From the NCBI GenBank assembly GCA_022813865.1, contig JALDZX010000008.1, positions 310,001 through 374,000 of the forward strand: 64,000 bases of DNA, read 5' to 3'. Below, piece by piece: positions 12,322-60,119 of this stretch. The translations under genes were made by a program, and so were the position numbers. This DNA is from Xylographa opegraphella (lineage: Eukaryota). How positions within the stretch are numbered: position 1 is the first letter of the stretch; each line of letters starts with the position of its first letter. Below the pieces are notes generated by a model. It worked only from the letters and a program-made list of their open reading frames with translations, was not told the DNA's origin and searched no databases.

Positions 12322-14700
12322 ATGCCTCCCCTCGAAACGTTGAAGTCTATTCCTGTTCGACCCTCGTCTCCCGGCCCACTTGCAAGTGACTACGCCAGGC
12401 AATTGATAGCAAAGCAACAGAAAAACAACTACCACTCCTCTTCACTCAAAACCATGAGCGTCAATCAGACCAACCTTCACCCCAGTGGTGTCGAGTGAGT
12501 AGTCTCTCCTGCCCCTACTGTCCGAGTGCACTTCGTCGTAAAGTGGCTGATGAGAGATCTCTCTTAGGCCGCAGAGGGAGCATACCGAACTGGAAGAGGA
12601 ACTACATGAGACCGCTCACATTGACTACGACCGCGTTGCCATTGTAAGTGCTACCCCTGTAGCCCAAGTCATTCGTTCCCGCGGGTCGACTGCAGCTCAC
12701 TCGCAACCAGATTGGCAATCCTTCTGTCGCGGCCCTGTACGAAGATGCCCTTGTCTACGAGACAGGCTCGGCCATCACCTCGACTGGTGCACTATCCGCA
12801 TACTCTGGCGCGAAGACCGGGCGCTCGCCGCTGGACAAACGCATTGTGAAGGAGCCGGGCTCTGAAAAGGAGATCTGGTGGGGACCTGTCAACAAAGCCA
12901 TGACACCTGAGGTCAGTACTCATCTGCTTGATCTCTCACAACCCATTGCCGGGCAGGTGCGACGAATCGAGTGCAGCTCGAAGATGCGTCAACGTCATTT
13001 ACGGTGCTTCGGTTTGGAAAAGCGGGTATTTTCTTCGCTTCGGCACCCCGCACTTACAGGGGCTGCTTTTGCTTATCTTATCTGCCAGAGCCCTACCCTA
13101 GCCCTGCCGATATAGTGCTCACGTGCTTTGATATACGGGCTGACAATTCTTGTGGCAGGTGTGGAAGATCAACCGAGAACGAGCAATCGATTATTTAAAT
13201 ACCAGAAATCGTATTTATGTAGTCGATGGCTTTGCCGGATGGGATGAGCAATACCGCATCAGTGTTCGGATTGTCTGCGCCAGAGCCTATCATGCGCTGT
13301 TCATGCGGAACATGCTCATCCGTCCCTCCAAAGAGGAGCTTGCCAAATTCCATCCCGACTACACGATTTACAACGCCGGATCGTTCCCGGCAAACAGGTT
13401 CACAACCGGGATGACCTCAGCCACCTCGGTTGCAATCAACTTCGCCGAGAAGGAAATGGTCATTCTCGGGACTGAATATGCTGGCGAAATGAAGAAAGGC
13501 GTCTTTACTGTACTCTTCTATGAGATGCCTGTGAAACACAATGTCCTCACGCTCCATTCTTCTGCCAACGAAGGTAAGGATGGTGATGTCACAGTCTTTT
13601 TCGGATTATCCGGAACTGGTAAAACCACCTTGTCGGCAGACCAAAAACGTGCTCTCATTGGCGATGATGAACACTGCTGGAGCGACCGTGGTGTCTTCAA
13701 TATTGAAGGAGGAGTAATAAAATTCCCCTAGTCCAGATCTGGCTGTCAGCTAATAACAAGCAATAGTGCTACGCGAAATGTATTGGCCTATCTGCCGAAA
13801 AGGAGCCCGACATCTTTAACGCTATCAAATTTGGTTCCGTCCTCGAGAACGTTGTTTTCAGCCCCGAGACACGTATCGTCGACTATGAAGACTCTACTTT
13901 GACCGAGAACACTCGTTGGTAGGTTGACACGTTATCCTTCTAAAGCACATATTGAACGAACACAGTGCATACCCGATCGAGTTCATCAGCAATGCCAAAA
14001 TCCCTTGCCTATCAATGAACCATCCGACAAACATCATCCTCCTGACTTGCGATGCTCGAGGAGTTCTCCCGCCGATCTCTAAACTCAACAGCGAGCAGAC
14101 CATGTTCCATTTTATCTCGGGCTATACATCAAAAATGGCTGGAACAGAGGACGGTGTTACCGAGCCTCAAGCGACTTTCTCATCCTGCTTCGCGCAGCCA
14201 TTCCTGGCTTTGCACCCAATGAGATATGCCAAAATGCTTGCCGATAAAATATCGCACCATAAAGCAAATGCTTGGTTGCTGAATACCGGTTGGGTCGGCG
14301 CAGGTGCAACCACCGGTGGCAAGCGGTGCCCGTAAGTAATGCATGGAGATATCACGAAAGGTATTCTAACAATCCAACAGACTCAAATACACTCGTGCCA
14401 TTCTCGATGCTATCCATTCGGGAGAGCTCGCCAAAGCTGAATATGAAACTTACGAAACCTTCAACCTCAGCGTTCCCACGTCATGCACAGGTGTCCCCAA
14501 TGACCTCCTCAACCCTGCAAAGTCGTGGACTGGGAAGGCAAACTTCAAGGAGGAAGTAACCAAGTTGGGCACTTTGTTTGTAGAGAACTTCAAGAAATAT
14601 GAGGATGAGGCTACGGAAGGTGTGATCAAGGCTGGTCAGTGTGCTCCATCAATCGCGAGGACAAACCCGCTAACACCCTCTGACAGGCCCCACCGTCTAA
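12322..14700 (+). CDS. acuF: Phosphoenolpyruvate carboxykinase (ATP), multi-exon
   Basis: [52 protein letters not shown] and TENTRCAYP motifs. The last mini-exon ends with TAA at 14700. A second ATG lies at 12454. Confidence 0.97.
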
Positions 14701-18100: not shown

Positions 18101-19288
18101 AGGGAGGACGGTCACTAACGGTAATCAGCATCAATCTCCGATCGCAGTTCCGGACTAAGAGACAATTGGCACTTGTTCAATGATTTCTTGGTGAGGAAGG
18201 TATCGAAAACCGATGCTCTACATTTCGCACCGTCATGGAAGATGCCTGCTGTTCTTACATTCCAAGTCGTCAACGGGAGACACGCTGTTGATGATTCGTG
18301 GAAGAATGCTCTTGATCCTACCCTTTTGTATATAGAATACTCCATCAAGTTCGTCGCCTTCTGTCTTTATCATTATGAGCACTAATGTATTGTCAGCAAT
18401 CGACCTCCTCAGGATTGCCAACTTCTGAATCCCGCCACTGAAGCTCCGGTCGCGGGCTCATGCGTAGCGATCGACACAGAGTTTGTCGCCTTACAGCAAG
18501 AAGAAATCGAGATCAAAGCAGATGGTGACCGCGAAATCGTCCGTCCGACCCGACTCGGCCTCGCTCGTGTCTCCGTTCTCCGCGGAAGCGGCATCAACGA
18601 AGGTCTCCCTTTCATCAACGACTATATCACGATCAGTGAGCCGATCGTTGACTACCTCACTAAGTGGTCTGGCGTCCACGAAGGCGATCTCAATAGTCTC
18701 CACTCTTCACACAACCTGGTCCCATTGAAGGTTGCCTACAAGAAGCTTTGGCTCCTCCTTAACCTCGGCTGCATATTCATCGGGCACGGACTCCCCAAGG
18801 ATTTCCGAACCATCAACATCCATGTTCCCAAAGCACAGGTTCTTGACACCGTTGACCTCTTCTACATCCGTGCGCGCCAACGCAAATTAAGCCTGCGCTT
18901 CCTAGCGTGGTATCTCTTGAAAGAAGACATCCAGCAAGAAACACACGACAGCATCGAAGACGCACGAACGGCCCTGCGCCTCTGGCGCAAGTTCGAAGAG
19001 TTCCGCGATGCGGGCGTTGTGGATGCGATGATCGAGGAAGTCTACCGTGAAGGGAAGAAGTGGGGCTACAAGCCACCCGGGGAAGCGATCGGGACGGCCA
19101 TGATGGGTAGGAGAGAGAAGGGCCGTAGCACGGAGGCGAGTCTGGGCGTACCGGGCTTTGACGGTGGGAGGGAGACGCCGGAGATTTTGAGGGGCGGAAG
19201 CGGGCCCGGAACACCGGTCGCGAAGCCAAGGGTCGTGGAGCGGAGGGCGGGGACCGCGACGAGCGAGTGGGAGAGTCCGGCGAAGTGA
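15156..19288 (+). CDS. PAN2: PAN2 poly(A) nuclease catalytic subunit (WD40, UCH-like, DEDD exonuclease), multi-exon
   Basis: MEADWNE start; [49 protein letters not shown]. Confidence 0.96.
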
Positions 19289-19941
19289 GTAGAATATTCG
19301 GAGTATGTTGAAACAGTGACAGGTTTTATATATCCAAGAAAAGTAAGCTTTGATGCGATGTTTAACCCTGTGGTGCGGGTGATAAGTTACACGGCGATCG
19401 AAGGGCACCTAGGAACACATGGGAAGAGGGGTACCTTAGCAGTGGTATGGGTAAATATTACATACATGGTGAGGGTTCGAGGTAAGGTGAGGGCTATGTG
19501 AAGGGGTAGGGTCAGGCCTGTGGTCAGACGAAGGGTCAAGCCTAGGGCTAGGGTCAATTACTGCAAAACAGAGTCTCTGAAGGTAGGTAGGTAATCACCC
19601 ATCACGCACGCAGAGCCTCGCAAGGACTATGAAGCCCGGACGAAGCATGGTAAGCTAACAAGCGACTCCAACCACACGTTCGGTGCGCGGCCAAACGCAT
19701 TCTCCGGACCCGACCTTACCGGGGAACAGAAAGAAAGACACTATTCATCGCACATAGGTTCAGGCAACCCGGCGGGCCGTGCGGAACAAACCACCAAATC
19801 TCTCCACCAGAACTCCTCAAACCCTGCAACTCGAAAAAGCCGAGTGGGCATTGATCTGCGGCCTTGAACGCAGCGCCTGAGACACACAAAGGGGTCCGGA
19901 CAAGCAAGGGGGGCGAGCCACATCCGCAACGGGCAAAAGAG

Positions 19942-20005
19942 AAAAAGCCAAGTCTCAAGACGACGGCTACTTGAGAGACATGTTTGGTTTGCGGCTAACT
20001 TGGCT
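19942..20005 (-). ncRNA. Putative Pol III small structured RNA, copy 1
   Basis: AGCCAAGT/ACTTGGCT terminal stem, CTCAAG/CTTGAG hairpin, T5 run, upstream AT element at 20021-20035, downstream GTTCAAGGC at 19869-19861. Confidence 0.6.
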
Positions 20006-20140
20006 AAGGGATGGGGTTGGTATTATGGTATTTATCATGCAACGAAATGATGTCTATGAGTAGAGGGGAATAAAAAGGAAGGGAAATCAAAAAGAAAAAC
20101 CGGGTTCAATTGAACTCAGGATCCATAGACGGGAACGGCC

Positions 20141-20205
20141 AAAAAAAGCCAAGTCTCAAGACGACGAGTACTTGAGAATCATGTTGGTTTGCAGCTAATT
20201 TGGCT
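20141..20205 (-). ncRNA. Putative Pol III small structured RNA, copy 2
   Basis: Same core with one stem substitution, T7 run, AT element at 20221, GAGTTCAATT at about 20117-20108. Confidence 0.6.
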
Positions 20206-20319
20206 GATGGATGGGGACCGTATTATGATATTTAGCTGGAATGGTGTCCATGGGTGAAACCAAAAAAGAAGGGAAACGAAAAAGAAAATTGAACTCAGGG
20301 TCCATCGACGAGAACGGCC

Positions 20320-20383
20320 AAAAAAGCTAAGTCTCAAGACGACGAGTACTTGAGAGACATGTTGGTTTGCGGCTAACTTGGCT
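20320..20383 (-). ncRNA. Putative Pol III small structured RNA, copy 3
   Basis: Same core with one stem substitution, T6 run, AT element at 20399, GAGTTCAATT at about 20296-20287. Confidence 0.6.
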
Positions 20384-20530
20384 GATGGATGGGGGTCATA
20401 TTATAATACTTATTATCTTGATGGCGTGCAACGCGTAAGGAGGACAGTCAGCAGAAGCCAAAAAGATAGACGGGAATTGAACTTGAGACCCTTCTTGCAT
20501 GTTCTGCAAACAACAGGAAGCGAAACGAAC

Positions 20531-20593
20531 AAAAAGCCAAGTCTCAAGGCTAATTGCTCTTGAGAGACACAGTGGTTTGCAGCTAACTTGGCT
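20531..20593 (-). ncRNA. Putative Pol III small structured RNA, copy 4
   Basis: Same core with loop variant AGCAATTAGC, T5 run, AT element at 20609, GTTCAATTCC at about 20482-20473. Confidence 0.62.
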
Positions 20594-20743
20594 GAGGGAT
20601 GAGTGTCTTATTATGGTATTATTATCTAACATGGTGAGCACTGTGCAAAGATAATCGGCAAAACCGAAAAAGATAAGCAGTGAATTGAACTCAGGACCTC
20701 CTTGCATATTCTACGAACAAGGGAAAGAGTGAACCGAATCGGC

Positions 20744-20807
20744 AAAAAAGCCAAGTCTCAAGGCTACGTGCTCTTGAGAGGCATAGTGGTTTGCAGCTAA
20801 CTTGGCT
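20744..20807 (-). ncRNA. Putative Pol III small structured RNA, copy 5
   Basis: Same core with loop variant AGCACGTAGC, T6 run, AT element at 20823, GAGTTCAATTC at about 20692-20682. Confidence 0.62.
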
Positions 20808-20954
20808 GATGGATCGACATGCTATTATGATATTTATTATGTAAACTACTTAGGTGTGGGTGATCAGCAAGACGCAAAAGTAATAAGAACTTTAAAGTTA
20901 GGAATTGAACTCGGGACCTGCTTGCAAAGAAGTGATAGGCTGAACCAGAACGGC

Positions 20955-21018
20955 AAAAAAGCCAAGTCTCAAGACGACGGGTACTTGAGAGGCATAGTGG
21001 TTTGCAGCTAACTTGGCT
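20955..21018 (-). ncRNA. Putative Pol III small structured RNA, copy 6
   Basis: Same core, T6 run, degenerate AT element at 21034, GAGTTCAATTCC at about 20912-20901. Confidence 0.62.
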
Positions 21019-21378
21019 GGAAGCAGGCCATCGTATCATAGTACATAAACCCATTCTAAAGCGCTTTTCGCTGGCATGGGGAGCCGTAGCCGGATGCGGA
21101 TGAGTAGGGAATGGATGCCACGTGTGGCAATGCATAACAATGAGGAACAGGTCTAACCACGAGCGGCGAGCCCCAAAGAGATTCTTAAAAATGTAGGTGT
21201 ATTTCTATCATAGCCCCTTGAAAATCGTTTATCATTACCTCTCATAAATCAACTATCACCGCTGGGATCATAAGAAAATATGCTGGTTGAGGCGGGATAT
21301 AAACCAGGCTAATCCTCCAAAACCTATATTCTTGCATGTATGCCTCTCAATGACTTGACTCCATTATACGGTCAATAC

Positions 21379-24059
21379 TCATCCTTCCCTCACATCATGC
21401 ACAACTCTCCGGACTCGAGGTGTTTGCGGAACGGGAGAGTCGGAAGGATCGGGCGGCGAAACCGAATAGTTGGGCCCGGATCCTGTCCCGGACGGATAGA
21501 CCGTGTACTGCGTAACTGTGTACGTGTGTCCTGTGGTTATGTAGCTCGTGAACACAGACTGTGTCGTGGCATAGATAGTCGTGGTTGTTGAATCAACAGC
21601 TGTTGTTGTCACCGTGATTGGTATCGTGGTAGTGATCGTCTCTAGCGTAGTATCTGTGGTAGTAAGAGTTCCTAAAGTCTCCGTGGTCAAAAACTCGGTT
21701 GTGACTACTGTAACCTATATCGACCAGACACTGATCAGCCGTGGCCCATTCGGAATAGAGAATGAGTTTTCATACAACGTAGTATGGATAGGAGGTATTG
21801 CCACTCATTGAGTAGTCAGTGCGTGTACCAGGCTCAAGACTTGGAGGGGGTGGAGTTGTATAGCTCAACGATGATCCGTTGCTCACAGTCGTGATTGTGA
21901 GGGTTGAAGTAGAGAGGGCGGTAGGTGACGATGTTAAATTTCCCGAATTCATACTCGTAGCATTGCTATATGGATTATGGTTAGAAGAAATCCAACAAGG
22001 CACGAACGAGAACTCACATAGATATTATGGGTGACACAGAGGGGCCAATAGTAATATTCATCAATGACGAGGGAATTAGAGACGCGGTACTGGCAAAAGT
22101 CGTCGTGTTCGGGAGACCTGTTGACAATAGTACTCCACTTGAAGCAGACGTGGTACCATTCCATACTCCTGTAAAGATAGAGCTCGATGATTTTCCAGTC
22201 GACGGATAAAACGTCACATTAGAAATACCAGTTGAGAGAGGGATGAGAGAGCTATATGGGAATGACGTCGTATTTGGATACCCTGTTGGCATTCCGCTTG
22301 AAGCAGAAAACGCTGTATTAGTTGTACCCGTCGAAAGAGGAACTATGCTTGAACCAGTGCCCGACGAGGTTACATTAGGACTGAACGTCGAAAGCGGAGC
22401 AGTTGGACCGACAGAGCTACTTATATTCCCAGAGGAAGTCGGCAAAGTCAGTGAGCCAGTCACTGTAACCGTGCCATTCATGTCAATGGTAATCACCGAT
22501 GTACTGTTGATGCTAGTAACAACTGCCGTTGTGAAATTTACCTCGGTCGTAGTAGTAACGAGAGCAGTTGTGAAAACCGTTGATGTTACGTTTCCTGTCA
22601 GTGCACTCCCATTTGTTGTAGGAGTGGGTGCTGAGATAATGCTTCCGCTCTCGGGTTGGCCAGTAATACTGAAAGTTCCAGAATTGTACGAGATTGAGCT
22701 GGAAGAGCTTGGAGGAGATGAAGGGGTGATGATTGGAAGCCCACTGGTACCAGAAGACGTGACGTTCGAGATAGTGCTAACACTGAAAAGTGTGCTCGTA
22801 TCTGACGACGAGGGACTCGAGCTGGAAATCGTGCTTGGTAGAGTTGAGTTACTTGCTGTGATTGTTGAGGTGGAAAGTGACGTGCTAATTGTAGAGATTA
22901 AAGCGATCGAGGAAGCGTTACTTGGTACGGGTAATGAAGAAGTCGACGGTACGGGGAAAGCTGAGGAGGAATTCAGTCCAATTGTGGAGAAGGAGCTTGA
23001 ATAAGTTGAGGAAAATGCCGATGATATTAGTGTAACAGTTGTGGTTGTAACGTCCATATCTGTGGTTACAACATCGGTATATTGATAGTTGATCGCAGTT
23101 ATGGTTGTGGACTATTATGTTATACCTGTCTCAGCTGCATTACCCTTAGATTGATAGTGATTGCAATACTTACGATTGTAGTTGTGACAAATGCTGTTGA
23201 GGTCCCTGGCGTAGGAAATTGACAAGAACACGCGGAGGAGATACCGGAGATAAGAGCCGTTTGGTTACAGGCATTACTTTCAAGTACCAGAAGCGGATGG
23301 TCTCCACCCAAGGTCACCGCAGCTGTTGTCTGTGGGCTGCGTTTACGATTGCGAAACAGATCAACCTCGGTCACTGTGGTAGTAACGGTAGATGTGGCAA
23401 TAGTAGTGGTAGATGTCCCGGTTGTATGTGTTCCAGGAAGTGTGGTTGTTGTGGCCCTTTTACGGTCAGTAGAATTCAGCAGTTGTTGATGAAGTAGAAA
23501 CAAACGCATAGACGGTATCAGCATATATCGTAGACACGATTGATGGAATAGAGAGAAAGGATGCACAGAATGACTGGACCTCAGTGGAGGAGACCTCCGA
23601 AAAGGCTGAGTAGTAACTGTCCAAAACACAGACTTGCCCAGGAGGCTGCGAAGCGGTCGCGATGGCGTTGGTGGTGGCGGCAGCTGTAATGACGTCGCTG
23701 CTAACGAAAGTAACATTGGGCTGAAGCAGTATAGTGGTAGCAGGGGAAGGTGTCGTGGTGTTTGACGGTATGGCAGTAGGAGTCAAGAGAACGCCTATAT
23801 CATTGGCTGAAGTTTGCGTCAAGGTTGGGATATCGATCGTTGTAGTTACATCAGTCGTATCTGTAACTATACCGGTCAAAGTAGCGGTAAAAGTATCTGT
23901 TAAAGTGTCCGTCTCATAAACCGTTGTGTATACCATTGTACTATCTTGTCGTCGGTTAAGTTTGGGAAAGCCATTAAGAGCAGCTGGCCACGCAAAGGCT
24001 GAATATGAGAATGAAAGCAGTACGAAGACAGAAACTAAGCTAGAGAGCGGAGTGTGCAT
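21379..24059 (-). CDS. Secreted Ser/Thr-rich mucin-like cell-surface protein, multi-exon
   Basis: Signal peptide MHTPLSSLVSVFVLLSFSYSAFA; long Thr/Ser tracts; SFCASFL and ISSACSC motifs; dibasic RR/KR sites. The ORF pieces are joined by plausible introns. Confidence 0.8.
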
Positions 24060-24632
24060 TGTGGACCAACTTGAAGTTGCTCAAGGAGCAAAAGAGTGAC
24101 TTGAGATAGGAGCGAAGGACGACACCAGTCTGTGATGACAGATTGGTAGATGAGACGACACAACCATTCTATATAGAGCAAAGATATAGATTCCATGTAG
24201 AGGCTGAGGAGCCTCGACCGTAGTACCTCGCATTGAAGCTCGTATAACATCTGGGCTGGTCATCCCTCCGGAAATGTTTCAGCTGTGCATACCACACTGC
24301 AAATCGCACGGACTGATGTATTTGCATACCACAAGATACCGCACGCGCAAGGGAAGCAGAAAAGTGATACAGCATCGTTATCATTTGACGTCAGCGAGCT
24401 CATGACGAAGGCGACCATAGCAGCGACTGTTGGAAATATCTTCACCAGAGTAAGCTAGGTGACACAGCAGTGTGTGATTAATGGAGTAGAAAAGACATTT
24501 CCCTGGTGCCAAGACTTACTAGTCCACTTTTGGCGCTCAGGTACCAAAATACCGAGGCCCGATCGCCAACCTCGTCCTTGTACTCAGCACACCCCAGATG
24601 CATTGACAGTGTGAAAGCTACACTTACATTCC

Positions 24633-57216: not shown

Positions 57217-60119
57217 ATGGAGCTGTACATCTTCTTGGCGCTTTCAGCCAATCCACACTCAGCTGTTGGCACCCCGTTTTCTGACCAGAGCAATGCTTCT
57301 TTCTTGATCAAAGTTGAGAATGGCAGTCGGAACGCCGCAGATGGGTTGAAACAGCTGGCAACATCTGGTGTACACACGCATACACTGAGTTGTATGCTCA
57401 TGATTTCTGAGCTGACTCCAGACTCAAAAGAGTTCCGCAGAATAATCAGCCGGGAACGCCAGCAGCAGAGAAATGAGCGTCGCTGGTATTTCACGAGAGT
57501 GGAGGTTGGCGGCGCGACTGATTTTCTGGCCGATCAACTACTAAAGACCCGAGCCGGTGAGAATGTGGTGGCCCTCTTGGCCGCCATAGCCTCAACCCTG
57601 GACGTAACATCCTGCACTGAGATCCTTTCATCGTTATTCGATGTTGCTGGTGTATCGCTCGATAACACTCCCGATCTTGCGGAATTTGATAAAATGCGGG
57701 AGGCGCTACTGCCATTAATTCGCAGAACCGAATTCAAGGAGAAGGTTGGTCATTATCATTATAGATTCCACAGTCTACTGGATACCAAAAGATCGATGAA
57801 GATTAATCCATACGAAGCGATGCCGCACGCGAAGGACATATCCACTATCGTCTGTATGCTATCAAATCTTACCCGCAACCCAGACCAAATCCTCAATTAC
57901 AGCGGCTTTACCGGAGCAGGATGGGTAGCAGCGTATGCATCATATATCCTTGGTATCAAAACCTGTGTGATCGACAGCCTTGGCCAAACTCTACCAATAA
58001 ACAGTGCTCTAGAGGACGCCAAAGTTGTGATATGGATATCCTTCTTAAACCAGGATGCACATTACGAACTCTCGATTGCCGGCAAGATTGAATAGTTAAT
58101 TGTGCTAGAGCCGGTATCCAAGCTAGAACGGAAAGGATGGAGTATCGTTTGTACAAAGCTCTGTTACTTAGACGAAAACCTTCCAGGACTGAGAGACCTG
58201 CCCGAGTTCCTCTACATGTCGGAGTTCATTCAAGTGGAAGCGATGAACGTGCTCTTTGGCCTCATTAACGAGACTCAAGATGAAGATCTCAGGACTTATC
58301 TTGAGCTCGGACAGTGTCCTTATCCTTATTACATGGTGGCATTCAAAGTTTTGTATATACGGGTTCTTGATATCCTCAGAATCATCGGGTTTTCGTGTCC
58401 GCCCATTACAAGCTTCTTTACTAAAAGATTGAATACCCGAAATACCCACATTAGTAAACGAAGCAGAACGAAGGGTTTTCTCTTTGGATTATCTGTTAAA
58501 GGAAGCCGATTTTGGTGGAACGCCGAGGCTGGAAAACCTTTTAAGATATATAGATATAAAGTGTGGTGGGATTGGGGGACAAAAGAAACCGAGTCGCTGG
58601 GGTTTGTCGAATGAGGCCCAAAAAAACGTTTCTGAGACATTAGGATATGTAGCCCGGCTTGCTGCGCACTTATCCTTCACGGACTGGCCTACTTCCCTCA
58701 AGCTTTTGAGCGTTGAACACTTTTAACAAAAGAAAAGCCTGCCGCCCAACCCGTTAACCGAGAAAGTCTATCCAGCAAAATACAGCATTTTTAATGGTCT
58801 TCTCTATCACCTTCTCCCAATATGTACAGATAGCTTCAGCGTTTAGCACTTCAAGGAAACCTATGGAAGCGTGGAGTGGGCAGGATTCGATATTGACGGC
58901 ATCATTGTTCTTAGAACCGCCGTCTTACACGACTCTGTAATCGACGTTAAGGGACAGCCACTTACTTTTTACAGCGGGCGAATGGTGCACGAAGGTACAC
59001 GAATTAGCATATTCAAGATCAGCCTTGAGGGCGTTGGTAAGCCCTATCTTGATTCTGCCCCTGATTGGCCGAGAGATATGAAGATGGAACCTATAATGGA
59101 AGGTCCAATTTGGGAGCCTTTCAATCAATTTCCTCTTCAAACAATGGCGTCGCTTGAGCTCCATCAAAACCATCACTCGACGAATGGATGTGCTCATGAT
59201 CCAGCATGGATACATCTACCCTGGAGCGATACGTGTACCTACCTATCCTGGCGGTTTAACACTGTTGCTCCCCAGAGTGTATGTGGCACGACCTTGCAAT
59301 CATAGCACAGAGACACCACTCTGGCTTCACATAAATGACCCCAGTTTGGATCATAAAGACCTATTTCCGGACGAAAAACGTGATTGAGAGGCGGCTATGA
59401 AATATATCCATTGCGTAAGGTTACAAAAAAAGCGAGAGCTGTATGGGTTCCAGCTTTTCTCTTAAACGATGTTGATTTTAATCACAGTCCTGGGAACATT
59501 ATCGTTTTTCAATTGCAGACCTGTCTCTACTGTGTTGTACATCAGATCACCATGCTTGCGAAAACAAGCAGGCACAATTATCATGACCTTAGTTTTCGCA
59601 TCGTTCGTATACTGCAGAATGCCTCCATGCAGCAGTCTGTTCCAGCTCCATCATCCCCAGTGGATTTCCACGTTTGCCGAGACTTCAATGCGATCAGATA
59701 CAAGAACCATGTTTCTGAAACGTACCGAGACCTTGCTTGTCCAGGCTCTGTCCACACTCCCATGCTGTGCTCATGGACTCATAACGCCCAAAGGACTTAG
59801 AAGTCATGAATATACTCGCGACGAGCCTCAGCCATGTATCGCTTGCGTTCCGCGAATCTGTCTTCAAAGCCAAAGTCCGTGTCAAGGTTGTCAGAAGCTA
59901 TACGAGAGCGTCCCGGAAGGCCGGAGCTTCACCGACGACGAAGTAGGAGATGGTCTGGGCTCGCGGGAGGACGCCGACACAAGAATTAACCCGAGCATGG
60001 ATGGTGGTGGGGAAGTGGAGGATGTATCAAGCATCCCAAACACATCAGCTTTGAGGGAGGATAGCGGAGCAGAGGACGTGGCCGGAGTGCAGCAGCGAAA
60101 CGCAAGCAGATCACAGTAG
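57217..60119 (+). pseudogene. Disrupted lineage-specific hypothetical gene
   Basis: A 292-aa ORF continues in frame past a TAG at 58093-58095. Protein-like sequence then shifts frame at about 58.47 kb, 58.72 kb, 59.15 kb and 59.39 kb, with no obvious introns. The 3' limit is uncertain. Confidence 0.55.

Follow-up and report, generated by a model that had tools for sequence, protein, structure and literature searches.

A tandem array of six similar units, identified at 19834-21047 in a 64,000-nucleotide stretch of Xylographa opegraphella DNA (assembly GCA_022813865.1, contig JALDZX010000008.1, positions 310,001 to 374,000 of the forward strand; hereafter the window, numbered from its first letter), is probably an undescribed family of small-RNA genes. 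In the reading that we favour, to which we give about an even chance, the sequence points to six paralogous RNA polymerase III (Pol III) genes on the minus strand for a lineage-specific RNA of ~58-64 nt, each with a split promoter like that of yeast SNR6 and lying beside the decayed remnant of a tRNA-looking gene. The units run head to tail with start-to-start distances of 200/201, 178, 210, 214 and 211 bp (period 178-214 bp), and each contains a core of 58 nt (59 nt in c1) on the minus strand. In minus-strand order the first unit is c6 (core at 20961-21018), followed by c5 (20750-20807), c4 (20536-20593), c3 (20326-20383), c2 (20148-20205) and, as the last unit of the array, c1 (19947-20005). 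The core consensus on this strand consists of AGCCAAG directly followed by UUAGCYGCAAACCA, then a short variable stretch, CUCAAG, a 10-nt loop, CUUGAG and ACUUGGC, after which comes a run of T residues. The 21-mer AGCCAAGTTAGCYGCAAACCA at the 5′ end of the core occurs six times in the 64 kb at up to three mismatches, always inside the array, with 0.00 occurrences expected by chance (100 shuffles). The array was recovered only partly by Tandem Repeats Finder (period 210, 2.3 copies, 76% matches) because the spacers are strongly diverged. An earlier note on this DNA had described six such cores, and these were found within 1 nt of the places that it gave; its spacing, consensus and fold, terminal T-run, contrast between core and spacer, lack of a shared open reading frame and of a match to a known family, and pair of flanking genes were likewise borne out by the results that follow.

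Mean identity in pairwise alignments of unit segments is 0.87 for the core (range 0.78-0.93) and 0.80 for positions −29 to −16 relative to it, falling to 0.59 at −15 to −1 and to 0.45 at −45 to −30. The spacers stand at 0.51 across all units and at 0.55 across units 2-6, with shuffled spacers run through the same aligner giving 0.51 ± 0.03. Alignment of whole units by L-INS-i together with position scans brought out islands outside the core, such that conservation takes the form of separate islands (the −29 to −16 box, the core, a B-box-like motif and a second T-run) with low values between them and no simple gradient. The interval from the −29 box to +1 has no indel in five of the six copies, c4 having one 1-nt gap, and the spacers are full of indels. 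The divergence of the units to saturation outside these few islands implies either an old array or rapid change in its spacers. Of the 58 core columns compared, 42 are invariant, and the 16 that vary comprise 11 unpaired and five paired columns from a total of 27 unpaired and 31 paired. In the apical loop, five of ten positions differ between c6 and c5 with the 12 flanking stem bases constant.

It is very improbable that this pattern reflects a functionless, minisatellite-like tandem repeat in which the cores merely look conserved through short-tract gene conversion. Exchange between copies is suggested by c6, a mosaic whose 5′ half is identical to that of c5 and whose hairpin is like those of c1-c3, and likeness between spacers is retained only between adjacent units (0.64-0.67), which are more alike than distant ones, as a neutral history would predict. 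Conversion without selection would not, however, halt at identical boundaries in all six units, and it leaves unexplained four small islands amid sequence of random-level identity; the sharpness of these common boundaries and the way in which changes within the core avoid the stems and the 14-mer UUAGCYGCAAACCA therefore argue against neutrality. Repeats degraded by repeat-induced point mutation are ruled out, as the indices are normal and no signature was detected in the array (TpA/ApT 0.84; (CpA+TpG)/(ApC+GpT) 1.29). A protein-coding repeat is also ruled out, there being no frame common to the units; the only open reading frames over the array are two different minus-strand frames, and three of the five periods are not divisible by 3.

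The signals flanking the cores follow a single order and orientation on the minus strand, namely a TATA-like box, a short gene, a terminator and a box B beyond it. Immediately 3′ of the stem in all six units is an oligo-T run of T5-T7, which abuts the core and whose first T pairs with A+1 (19942-19946, T5; 20141-20147, T7; 20320-20325, T6; 20531-20535, T5; 20744-20749, T6; 20955-20960, T6). These first T-runs are interpreted as putative Pol III terminators, and across 19941-21058 every run of four or more T, 16 in total, is on the minus strand. At −29 to −16 of each core lies an A/T-rich box, TAAATAYCATAATA (20021-20034, 20221-20234, 20399-20412, 20609-20622, 20823-20836 and 21034-21047), present in all six units with a degenerate copy in c6 (TATGTACTATGATA), which we infer to be a TATA-like element.

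Beyond the first T-run, by 24-71 nt, every unit carries a B-box-like motif, (GGTCCYGA)GTTCAAnnC, on the minus strand at +89 to +136 (19861-19870, 20107-20116, 20286-20295, 20474-20483, 20682-20691 and 20902-20911). GTTCAA is invariant at the aligned place in all six units, and the C two bases further on is kept in four, the c2 and c3 boxes being without it. The pattern RGTTCAANNC occurs five times on the two strands of the window, three of these occurrences being in the array on the minus strand, and GTTCAA fits what we take to be the B-box consensus of tRNA genes. The motif is followed, after 2-22 nt, by a second minus-strand T-run in all six units (T5 at 19834-19838, 20095-20099, 20279-20283, 20460-20464 and 20667-20671; T4 at 20876-20879), which may represent a backup terminator or the one that once ended a tRNA-type unit, now decayed. 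Inside the core, TAGC at +9 to +12 matches the first block of what we take to be the A-box consensus, the second block (CAAAC here) not matching. The presence of both the −29 box and the downstream B-box-like motif in all six units and in one orientation strengthens the case for Pol III as far as sequence can make it.

In most units the stretch that separates the B box from the first T-run opens with GCCGTTC. In c6 this stretch (GCCGTTC..TGGTTCAG) appears by reading to be loosely like a tRNA 5′ end with an A box, and in c5 the B box lies at about position 53 of the stretch (52 nt between), a tRNA-like distance. The c5 stretch past the first terminator is also loosely similar to a tRNA 5′ end. 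In units 2 and 3, which have shortened spacers, ~25-30 nt of the tRNA-like stretch are missing. Past the last core, at 19850-19875 on the minus strand, unit 1 alone has its B-box-like motif within a T-arm-like hairpin (CTGCG/8-nt loop/CGCAG), for which no matching acceptor stem was found.

Sites of the extra-TFIIIC or boundary type are known from yeasts, and the array could be of a similar nature, a relic, amplified in tandem, of a tRNA gene or a tRNA-derived short interspersed nuclear element (SINE) whose B boxes still bind TFIIIC, which makes no stable functional small RNA and whose core is kept for a DNA-level reason or as the flank of a TFIIIC/TFIIIB site. This is unlikely. In its favour, all six units have a B-box-like motif with a T-run of its own behind it, c6 has the tRNA-like opening and c5 the tRNA-like distance, and tRNA-related SINE families occur in filamentous ascomycetes (PMC5063351). 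The best-kept part of each unit is nevertheless the core, with the body of the tRNA-like stretch at random-level identity among the units, which argues against a pure relic. Searches of the array with the Rfam tRNA model and ARAGORN were empty at normal thresholds, no target-site duplications were seen at the unit borders and no other copy was found in the 64 kb. Moreover, the keeping of nested inverted repeats while their loop varies, together with a compensatory change, points to RNA structure, and a role at the level of DNA leaves unexplained why T5-T7 should always abut the 3′ end of the stem precisely.

The minus-strand fold predicted by RNAalifold has an 8-bp stem that joins both ends of the core and continues into a 6-bp hairpin with two further pairs, leaving a 21-22-nt internal loop on the 5′ side. 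The first 14 nt of this loop, UUAGCYGCAAACCA, starting at +8, are invariant save for one C/U position. Standard pairs fill 93 of the 96 pair cells, 12 of the 16 pairs never vary and three pairs have one broken cell each. There is one two-sided pair change, A-U in four copies and G-C in c4 and c5, where it is the variant of the hairpin-extension pair. With regard to individual copies, c6 has its terminal stem and hairpin fully paired, c3 has one C·A mismatch and c2 one A·C mismatch in the terminal stem, and c1 has an extra A in the internal loop and a G·G mismatch in the hairpin extension. With their stem mismatches, shortened spacers and B boxes without the final C, c2 and c3 may be weakened copies.

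A number of points weigh against six functional Pol III genes. All of the evidence comes from six paralogues in one genome, a T5 run is a short terminator, the intragenic A box appears to be only half present, and the B box with its second T-run could be a mere relic of a tRNA gene or SINE. The covariation comprises one event in two adjacent copies with a score reached by 34 of 500 shuffles, such that covariation support for the fold is weak and the case for structure leans more on fixed stems amid changing loops. The strand is a further difficulty. The consensus fold has an energy of −18.86 kcal/mol on the plus strand vs −15.69 kcal/mol on the minus strand, with per-copy energies of −16.4 to −22.5 vs −9.9 to −20.2 kcal/mol, the plus-strand fold being the stabler in every copy, by 1.3 to 7.9 kcal/mol, and with a mean z of about −2.4 vs −1.8. 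The terminal-stem mismatches of c2 (A·C) and c3 (C·A) would, on the plus strand, be G·U and U·G, and an extra hairpin of 5 bp there would take up the 14-mer, whose sole variable base would remain paired, alternating between U-A and U-G.

Such features would be expected were the functional strand the plus strand, with the cores acting as structured modules in a longer Pol II transcript, such as a polycistronic small-RNA precursor that is processed or a long 3′ extension of the neighbouring gene PAN2, in which the minus-strand T-runs would appear as A-runs. The plus strand also has no run of four or more T in the array that would stop a polymerase, and clustered small-RNA genes are found in filamentous fungi, as with the snoRNA (small nucleolar RNA) clusters of Aspergillus fumigatus (PMC2377427). 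This explanation is nonetheless improbable. For it, neither a promoter nor a processing signal was recognised, nor were snoRNA boxes of the C/D or H/ACA type; there was no Rfam match, and it gives no known role to A5-A7 abutting the structure, to the A/T-rich box or to a reversed B box. The extra hairpin is weak (3-nt loop, two to three G·U pairs), two C-to-T changes can be mutation bias in weakened copies, and the array begins ~650 nt beyond the PAN2 stop codon. The minus strand is favoured because only there do the −29 box, the B-box orientation and the T-run next to the stem each have a textbook role.

On balance, the suggestion of the earlier note that the array is a Pol III small-RNA family gains from the T-run, the −29 box and the downstream B-box-like motif in six of six units, and loses from the single covariation event and from the better folding of the plus strand. 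Its view that conservation is limited to the core, a terminator and promoter-like boxes agrees with the islands observed, but not with spacers that appear to hold a decayed tRNA-like unit (B box plus T-run), and as a result a tRNA- or SINE-derived repeat stays a live rival.

If the array does consist of Pol III genes, TFIIIC would bind the B-box-like motif past the terminator, as it does at yeast SNR6, and TFIIIB/TBP would sit on the A/T-rich box at about −29. Transcription would start at the A of AGCCAAG and end in the T5-T7 run, with termination there leaving a 3′ oligo-U tail. Such a tail is where the La protein usually binds. The RNA would fold with its 8-bp end-joining stem running straight into the 6(+2)-bp hairpin on the 3′ side, and the invariant 14 nt would presumably contact a complementary RNA or a protein. 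What remains of a tRNA-type gene that once lay behind each core would be the B box and its T-run, the body having decayed and the TFIIIC site and terminator having been kept.

Searches for known families were made with Rfam 15, the scope covering tRNA, 5S RNA, small nuclear RNAs, snoRNAs, signal recognition particle (SRP) RNA, Y RNA and stem-bulge RNA (sbRNA), and small ribozymes. The whole 64-kb window gave no row at gathering thresholds. Over 18500-22500, at E values up to 10 with permissive filters, there were two rows, neither on a core and both far below gathering (24.7 vs 46.5 bits and 13.5 vs 55 bits). The Class I RNA model RF01414, which its authors place in Rfam (PMC7919456), gave no row at E values up to 10. 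ARAGORN found no tRNA gene in the 64-kb window, nor in 19701-21300 in either standard or mitochondrial mode. At lowered thresholds it made one and two implausible calls, none on a core and two of them with 'introns' of 113 and 706 nt. A tRNA-Gly(GCC) called at 19733-19805 on the minus strand at a threshold of 80% lacks a T-loop motif, is uncalled at normal settings and is probably noise. As the 64 kb are without an ARAGORN tRNA and without an Rfam family at gathering, the window holds no known Pol III gene of this organism with which the promoters could be compared. The cores are without a cloverleaf, anticodon arm or T-loop. The earlier note had also proposed a covariance model of the cores, and one built from the six copies and run on the window with filters off recovered the six at 85-95 bits (94.7 for c6, 94.2 for c5 and 88.8 for c4), with the next best hit at 11.7 bits (E 1.7); no further copy of the core was therefore found outside the array in the 64-kb window.

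Other classes of element were considered and set aside. A snoRNA is ruled out, as no C/D or H/ACA boxes were found in the cores on either strand (by reading) and the sole Rfam snoRNA row is the 13.5-bit chance match outside the array. A miniature inverted-repeat transposable element would account for the 8-bp inverted ends, but not for the regular head-to-tail spacing and the lack of duplications. A precursor of a microRNA-like RNA (milRNA) is ruled out, the stems being too short in comparison with the Neurospora kind (PMC3547838).

Among metagenome contigs an exact 19-mer of the core was found at four loci, each in coding-looking sequence without an adjoining hairpin or T-run, and these are judged from their sequence context to be chance matches. 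The gapped core pattern had no match in prokaryote genome contigs and none in viral contigs, as expected for a fungal element. Targets of the 14-mer in the window were confined to the six cores and one site at 57869 with two mismatches, in the same strand sense, with 0.72 expected by chance, which provides no lead to a target. Literature searches by sequence string and by concept returned no description of such an array. Nothing like it appears in the available parts of a small-RNA screen in A. fumigatus (PMC2377427) or of ascomycete-wide structure screens (PMC5640933, PMC8216456). In those parts the large ascomycete screens report mainly single-copy structures, none of them a multi-copy RNA of ~60 nt (PMC8216456, PMC5640933). 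The supplementary text files of one contain no occurrence, its Stockholm alignments, where a match is possible, lying outside this coverage (PMC5640933).

The array occupies the 2.7 kb that separate the 3′ ends of two convergent genes, an interval that does not have to hold an mRNA promoter, and this setting is counted in favour of the Pol III reading. On one side is PAN2, which ends at 19288 on the plus strand with its exonuclease domain at 18386-19288 and whose best solved relative is Neurospora crassa PAN2. On the other is a Ser/Thr-rich open reading frame at 22014-23111 on the minus strand, ending at 22014, for which no Pfam family was found. The 'mucin-like' neighbour as a whole spans 22014-24080 on the minus strand as long Ser/Thr-rich open reading frames (365, 220 and 204 amino acids stop to stop) with no Pfam family, and its 3′ end faces the array at a distance of ~950 bp. 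The rest of the window (including 13144-13731) encodes PEPCK, inositol monophosphatase, a Sir2-family protein, a TFIIS/SPOC/PHD protein, Gpi16 and a HECT ligase. The surrounding genes are an ordinary ascomycete housekeeping set with no evident link to small-RNA biology.

A search of sequencing runs listed one DNA run and no RNA run as carriers of the sequence. Contigs from this DNA run match the array with no differences; this run may be the source of the window and hence is not independent. Over 20779-21019 its assembly graph breaks only at sequence identical in c5 and c6, and a 36-nt piece common to these two units has a depth of 358 vs ~150-167 for neighbouring pieces. This gives a weak hint that the exact words common to c5 and c6 occur just twice in that genome, contig depth not being copy number. 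Two further runs, aligned at 80% likeness, gave pieces of 36-87 nt over a PAN2 exon only and are uninformative as to absence of the array.

Few fungal Pol III products are known, namely tRNAs, 5S RNA, U6, RNase P and SRP RNAs and some others. If the array is an expressed family, it would represent a small-RNA class new to fungi; in general terms it would be a family of small Pol III RNAs, a kind already known, whose promoter has had an unusual history. It would also add to SNR6 a second natural case of this unusual promoter design, in which box B lies past the terminator, and would show that one route to the design is to retain only the TFIIIC site of a neighbouring tRNA gene. Were no RNA made, the array would amount to six TFIIIC sites, a compact natural set between two convergent genes, of some interest in relation to chromatin boundaries.

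In terms of promoter design the nearest parallel is yeast SNR6, whose TATA box is at −30 and whose box B is extragenic, lying downstream of the terminator (PMC9136082). The array units would share with SNR6 a TATA element near −30, a short gene that ends in an oligo-T terminator and, past this, a box B that is outside the gene, all in one orientation. The array RNA is not U6, as judged from the lack of an Rfam match, and its A-to-B distance would be ~80-127 bp (if the A box is at +9) vs 202 bp at SNR6, with the array B box 24-71 nt past the terminator. The array differs further in its half-recognisable A box, in its six tandem copies and in the T-run that accompanies each B box.

With regard to RNA architecture, the Class I RNAs of Dictyostelium are 42-65 nt long with a short end-joining stem, a conserved motif of ~11 nt by the 5′ stem arm and a variable remainder (PMC7919456). 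Their genes are intergenic, often clustered and in many cases have a downstream T run, and their authors found them only in dictyostelids (PMC7919456). The array RNA would resemble them in form only, having 58-59 nt, an 8-bp terminal stem, an invariant 14-mer by the 5′ arm and a variable remainder, with the genes in a cluster and followed by a T-run. Class I genes carry a Dictyostelium upstream sequence element (DUSE) ~60 nt upstream, whereas the array has a TATA-like box at −29 and its B box downstream; upstream of that box its sequence has low identity at −45 to −30 (0.45, as above) and is random-level spacer beyond −45. In addition, the stem sequence varies in Class I RNAs and is invariant in the array, and no match to their Rfam model was obtained even at E values up to 10.

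Y RNAs and nematode sbRNAs are small Pol III transcripts with paired ends, an internal loop and a 3′ oligo-U, often encoded in clusters. The array RNA would share with them a Pol III-type unit, paired 5′ and 3′ ends, an internal loop, oligo-U and a gene cluster. Its terminal stem is, by contrast, an unbulged 8-bp helix without the Ro-binding type of bulge that presumably marks these RNAs, and it had no Rfam Y or sbRNA match. Y RNA and sbRNA are themselves homologous (PMC4726728).

Lineage-restricted Pol III RNAs are also known from rodents, where the 4.5SI and 4.5SH RNAs derive from tRNA or 7SL sequence and their genes have boxes A and B with a TATA-like element at −31/−24 (PMC10137851). The array genes would be similar in encoding small, lineage-restricted Pol III RNAs and in combining a box B with a TATA-like box. 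The two systems differ in that there is no sequence relation between them, the B box is intragenic in the 4.5S genes, and the latter are animal rather than fungal.

In fungi, Pol III small RNAs linked to tRNA genes include the tRNA-5S dicistrons of Yarrowia (PMC2566860) and milR-4 of Neurospora (PMC3547838). The stems of the array RNA are too short for a precursor of the milR-4 kind, and a terminator parts the core from the tRNA-like remnant, so that the unit is no dicistron. The likeness to tRNA would lie instead in the backbone, in that the array fold resembles an acceptor stem leading into a T arm (5′ stem strand, insert, hairpin and a 3′ strand abutting the hairpin), with TAGC at +9 sitting at the start of a tRNA A box and a B box and terminator next door; against this, the core has no cloverleaf, anticodon arm or T-loop. 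A bolder proposal, which we put forward tentatively and with more doubt than confidence, is that the array belongs to an undescribed family of ~60-nt Pol III RNAs in a filamentous ascomycete, in which a tRNA backbone would have been stripped to its acceptor/T-arm stack with an invariant 14-nt single strand replacing the D and anticodon arms, and in which SNR6-like promoters would have arisen through capture of the TFIIIC site of an adjacent decayed tRNA gene. If so, the RNA would be a fungal counterpart in form to the Y RNAs or the Dictyostelium Class I RNAs and could work as a decoy or small guide, or provide a scaffold for a protein acting on tRNA-like ends. By analogy, then, the closest known systems would be SNR6 for the promoter design, the Dictyostelium Class I RNAs and more loosely the Y and stem-bulge RNAs for the architecture of the RNA, and a tRNA cut down to its acceptor and T arms for the topology of the backbone.

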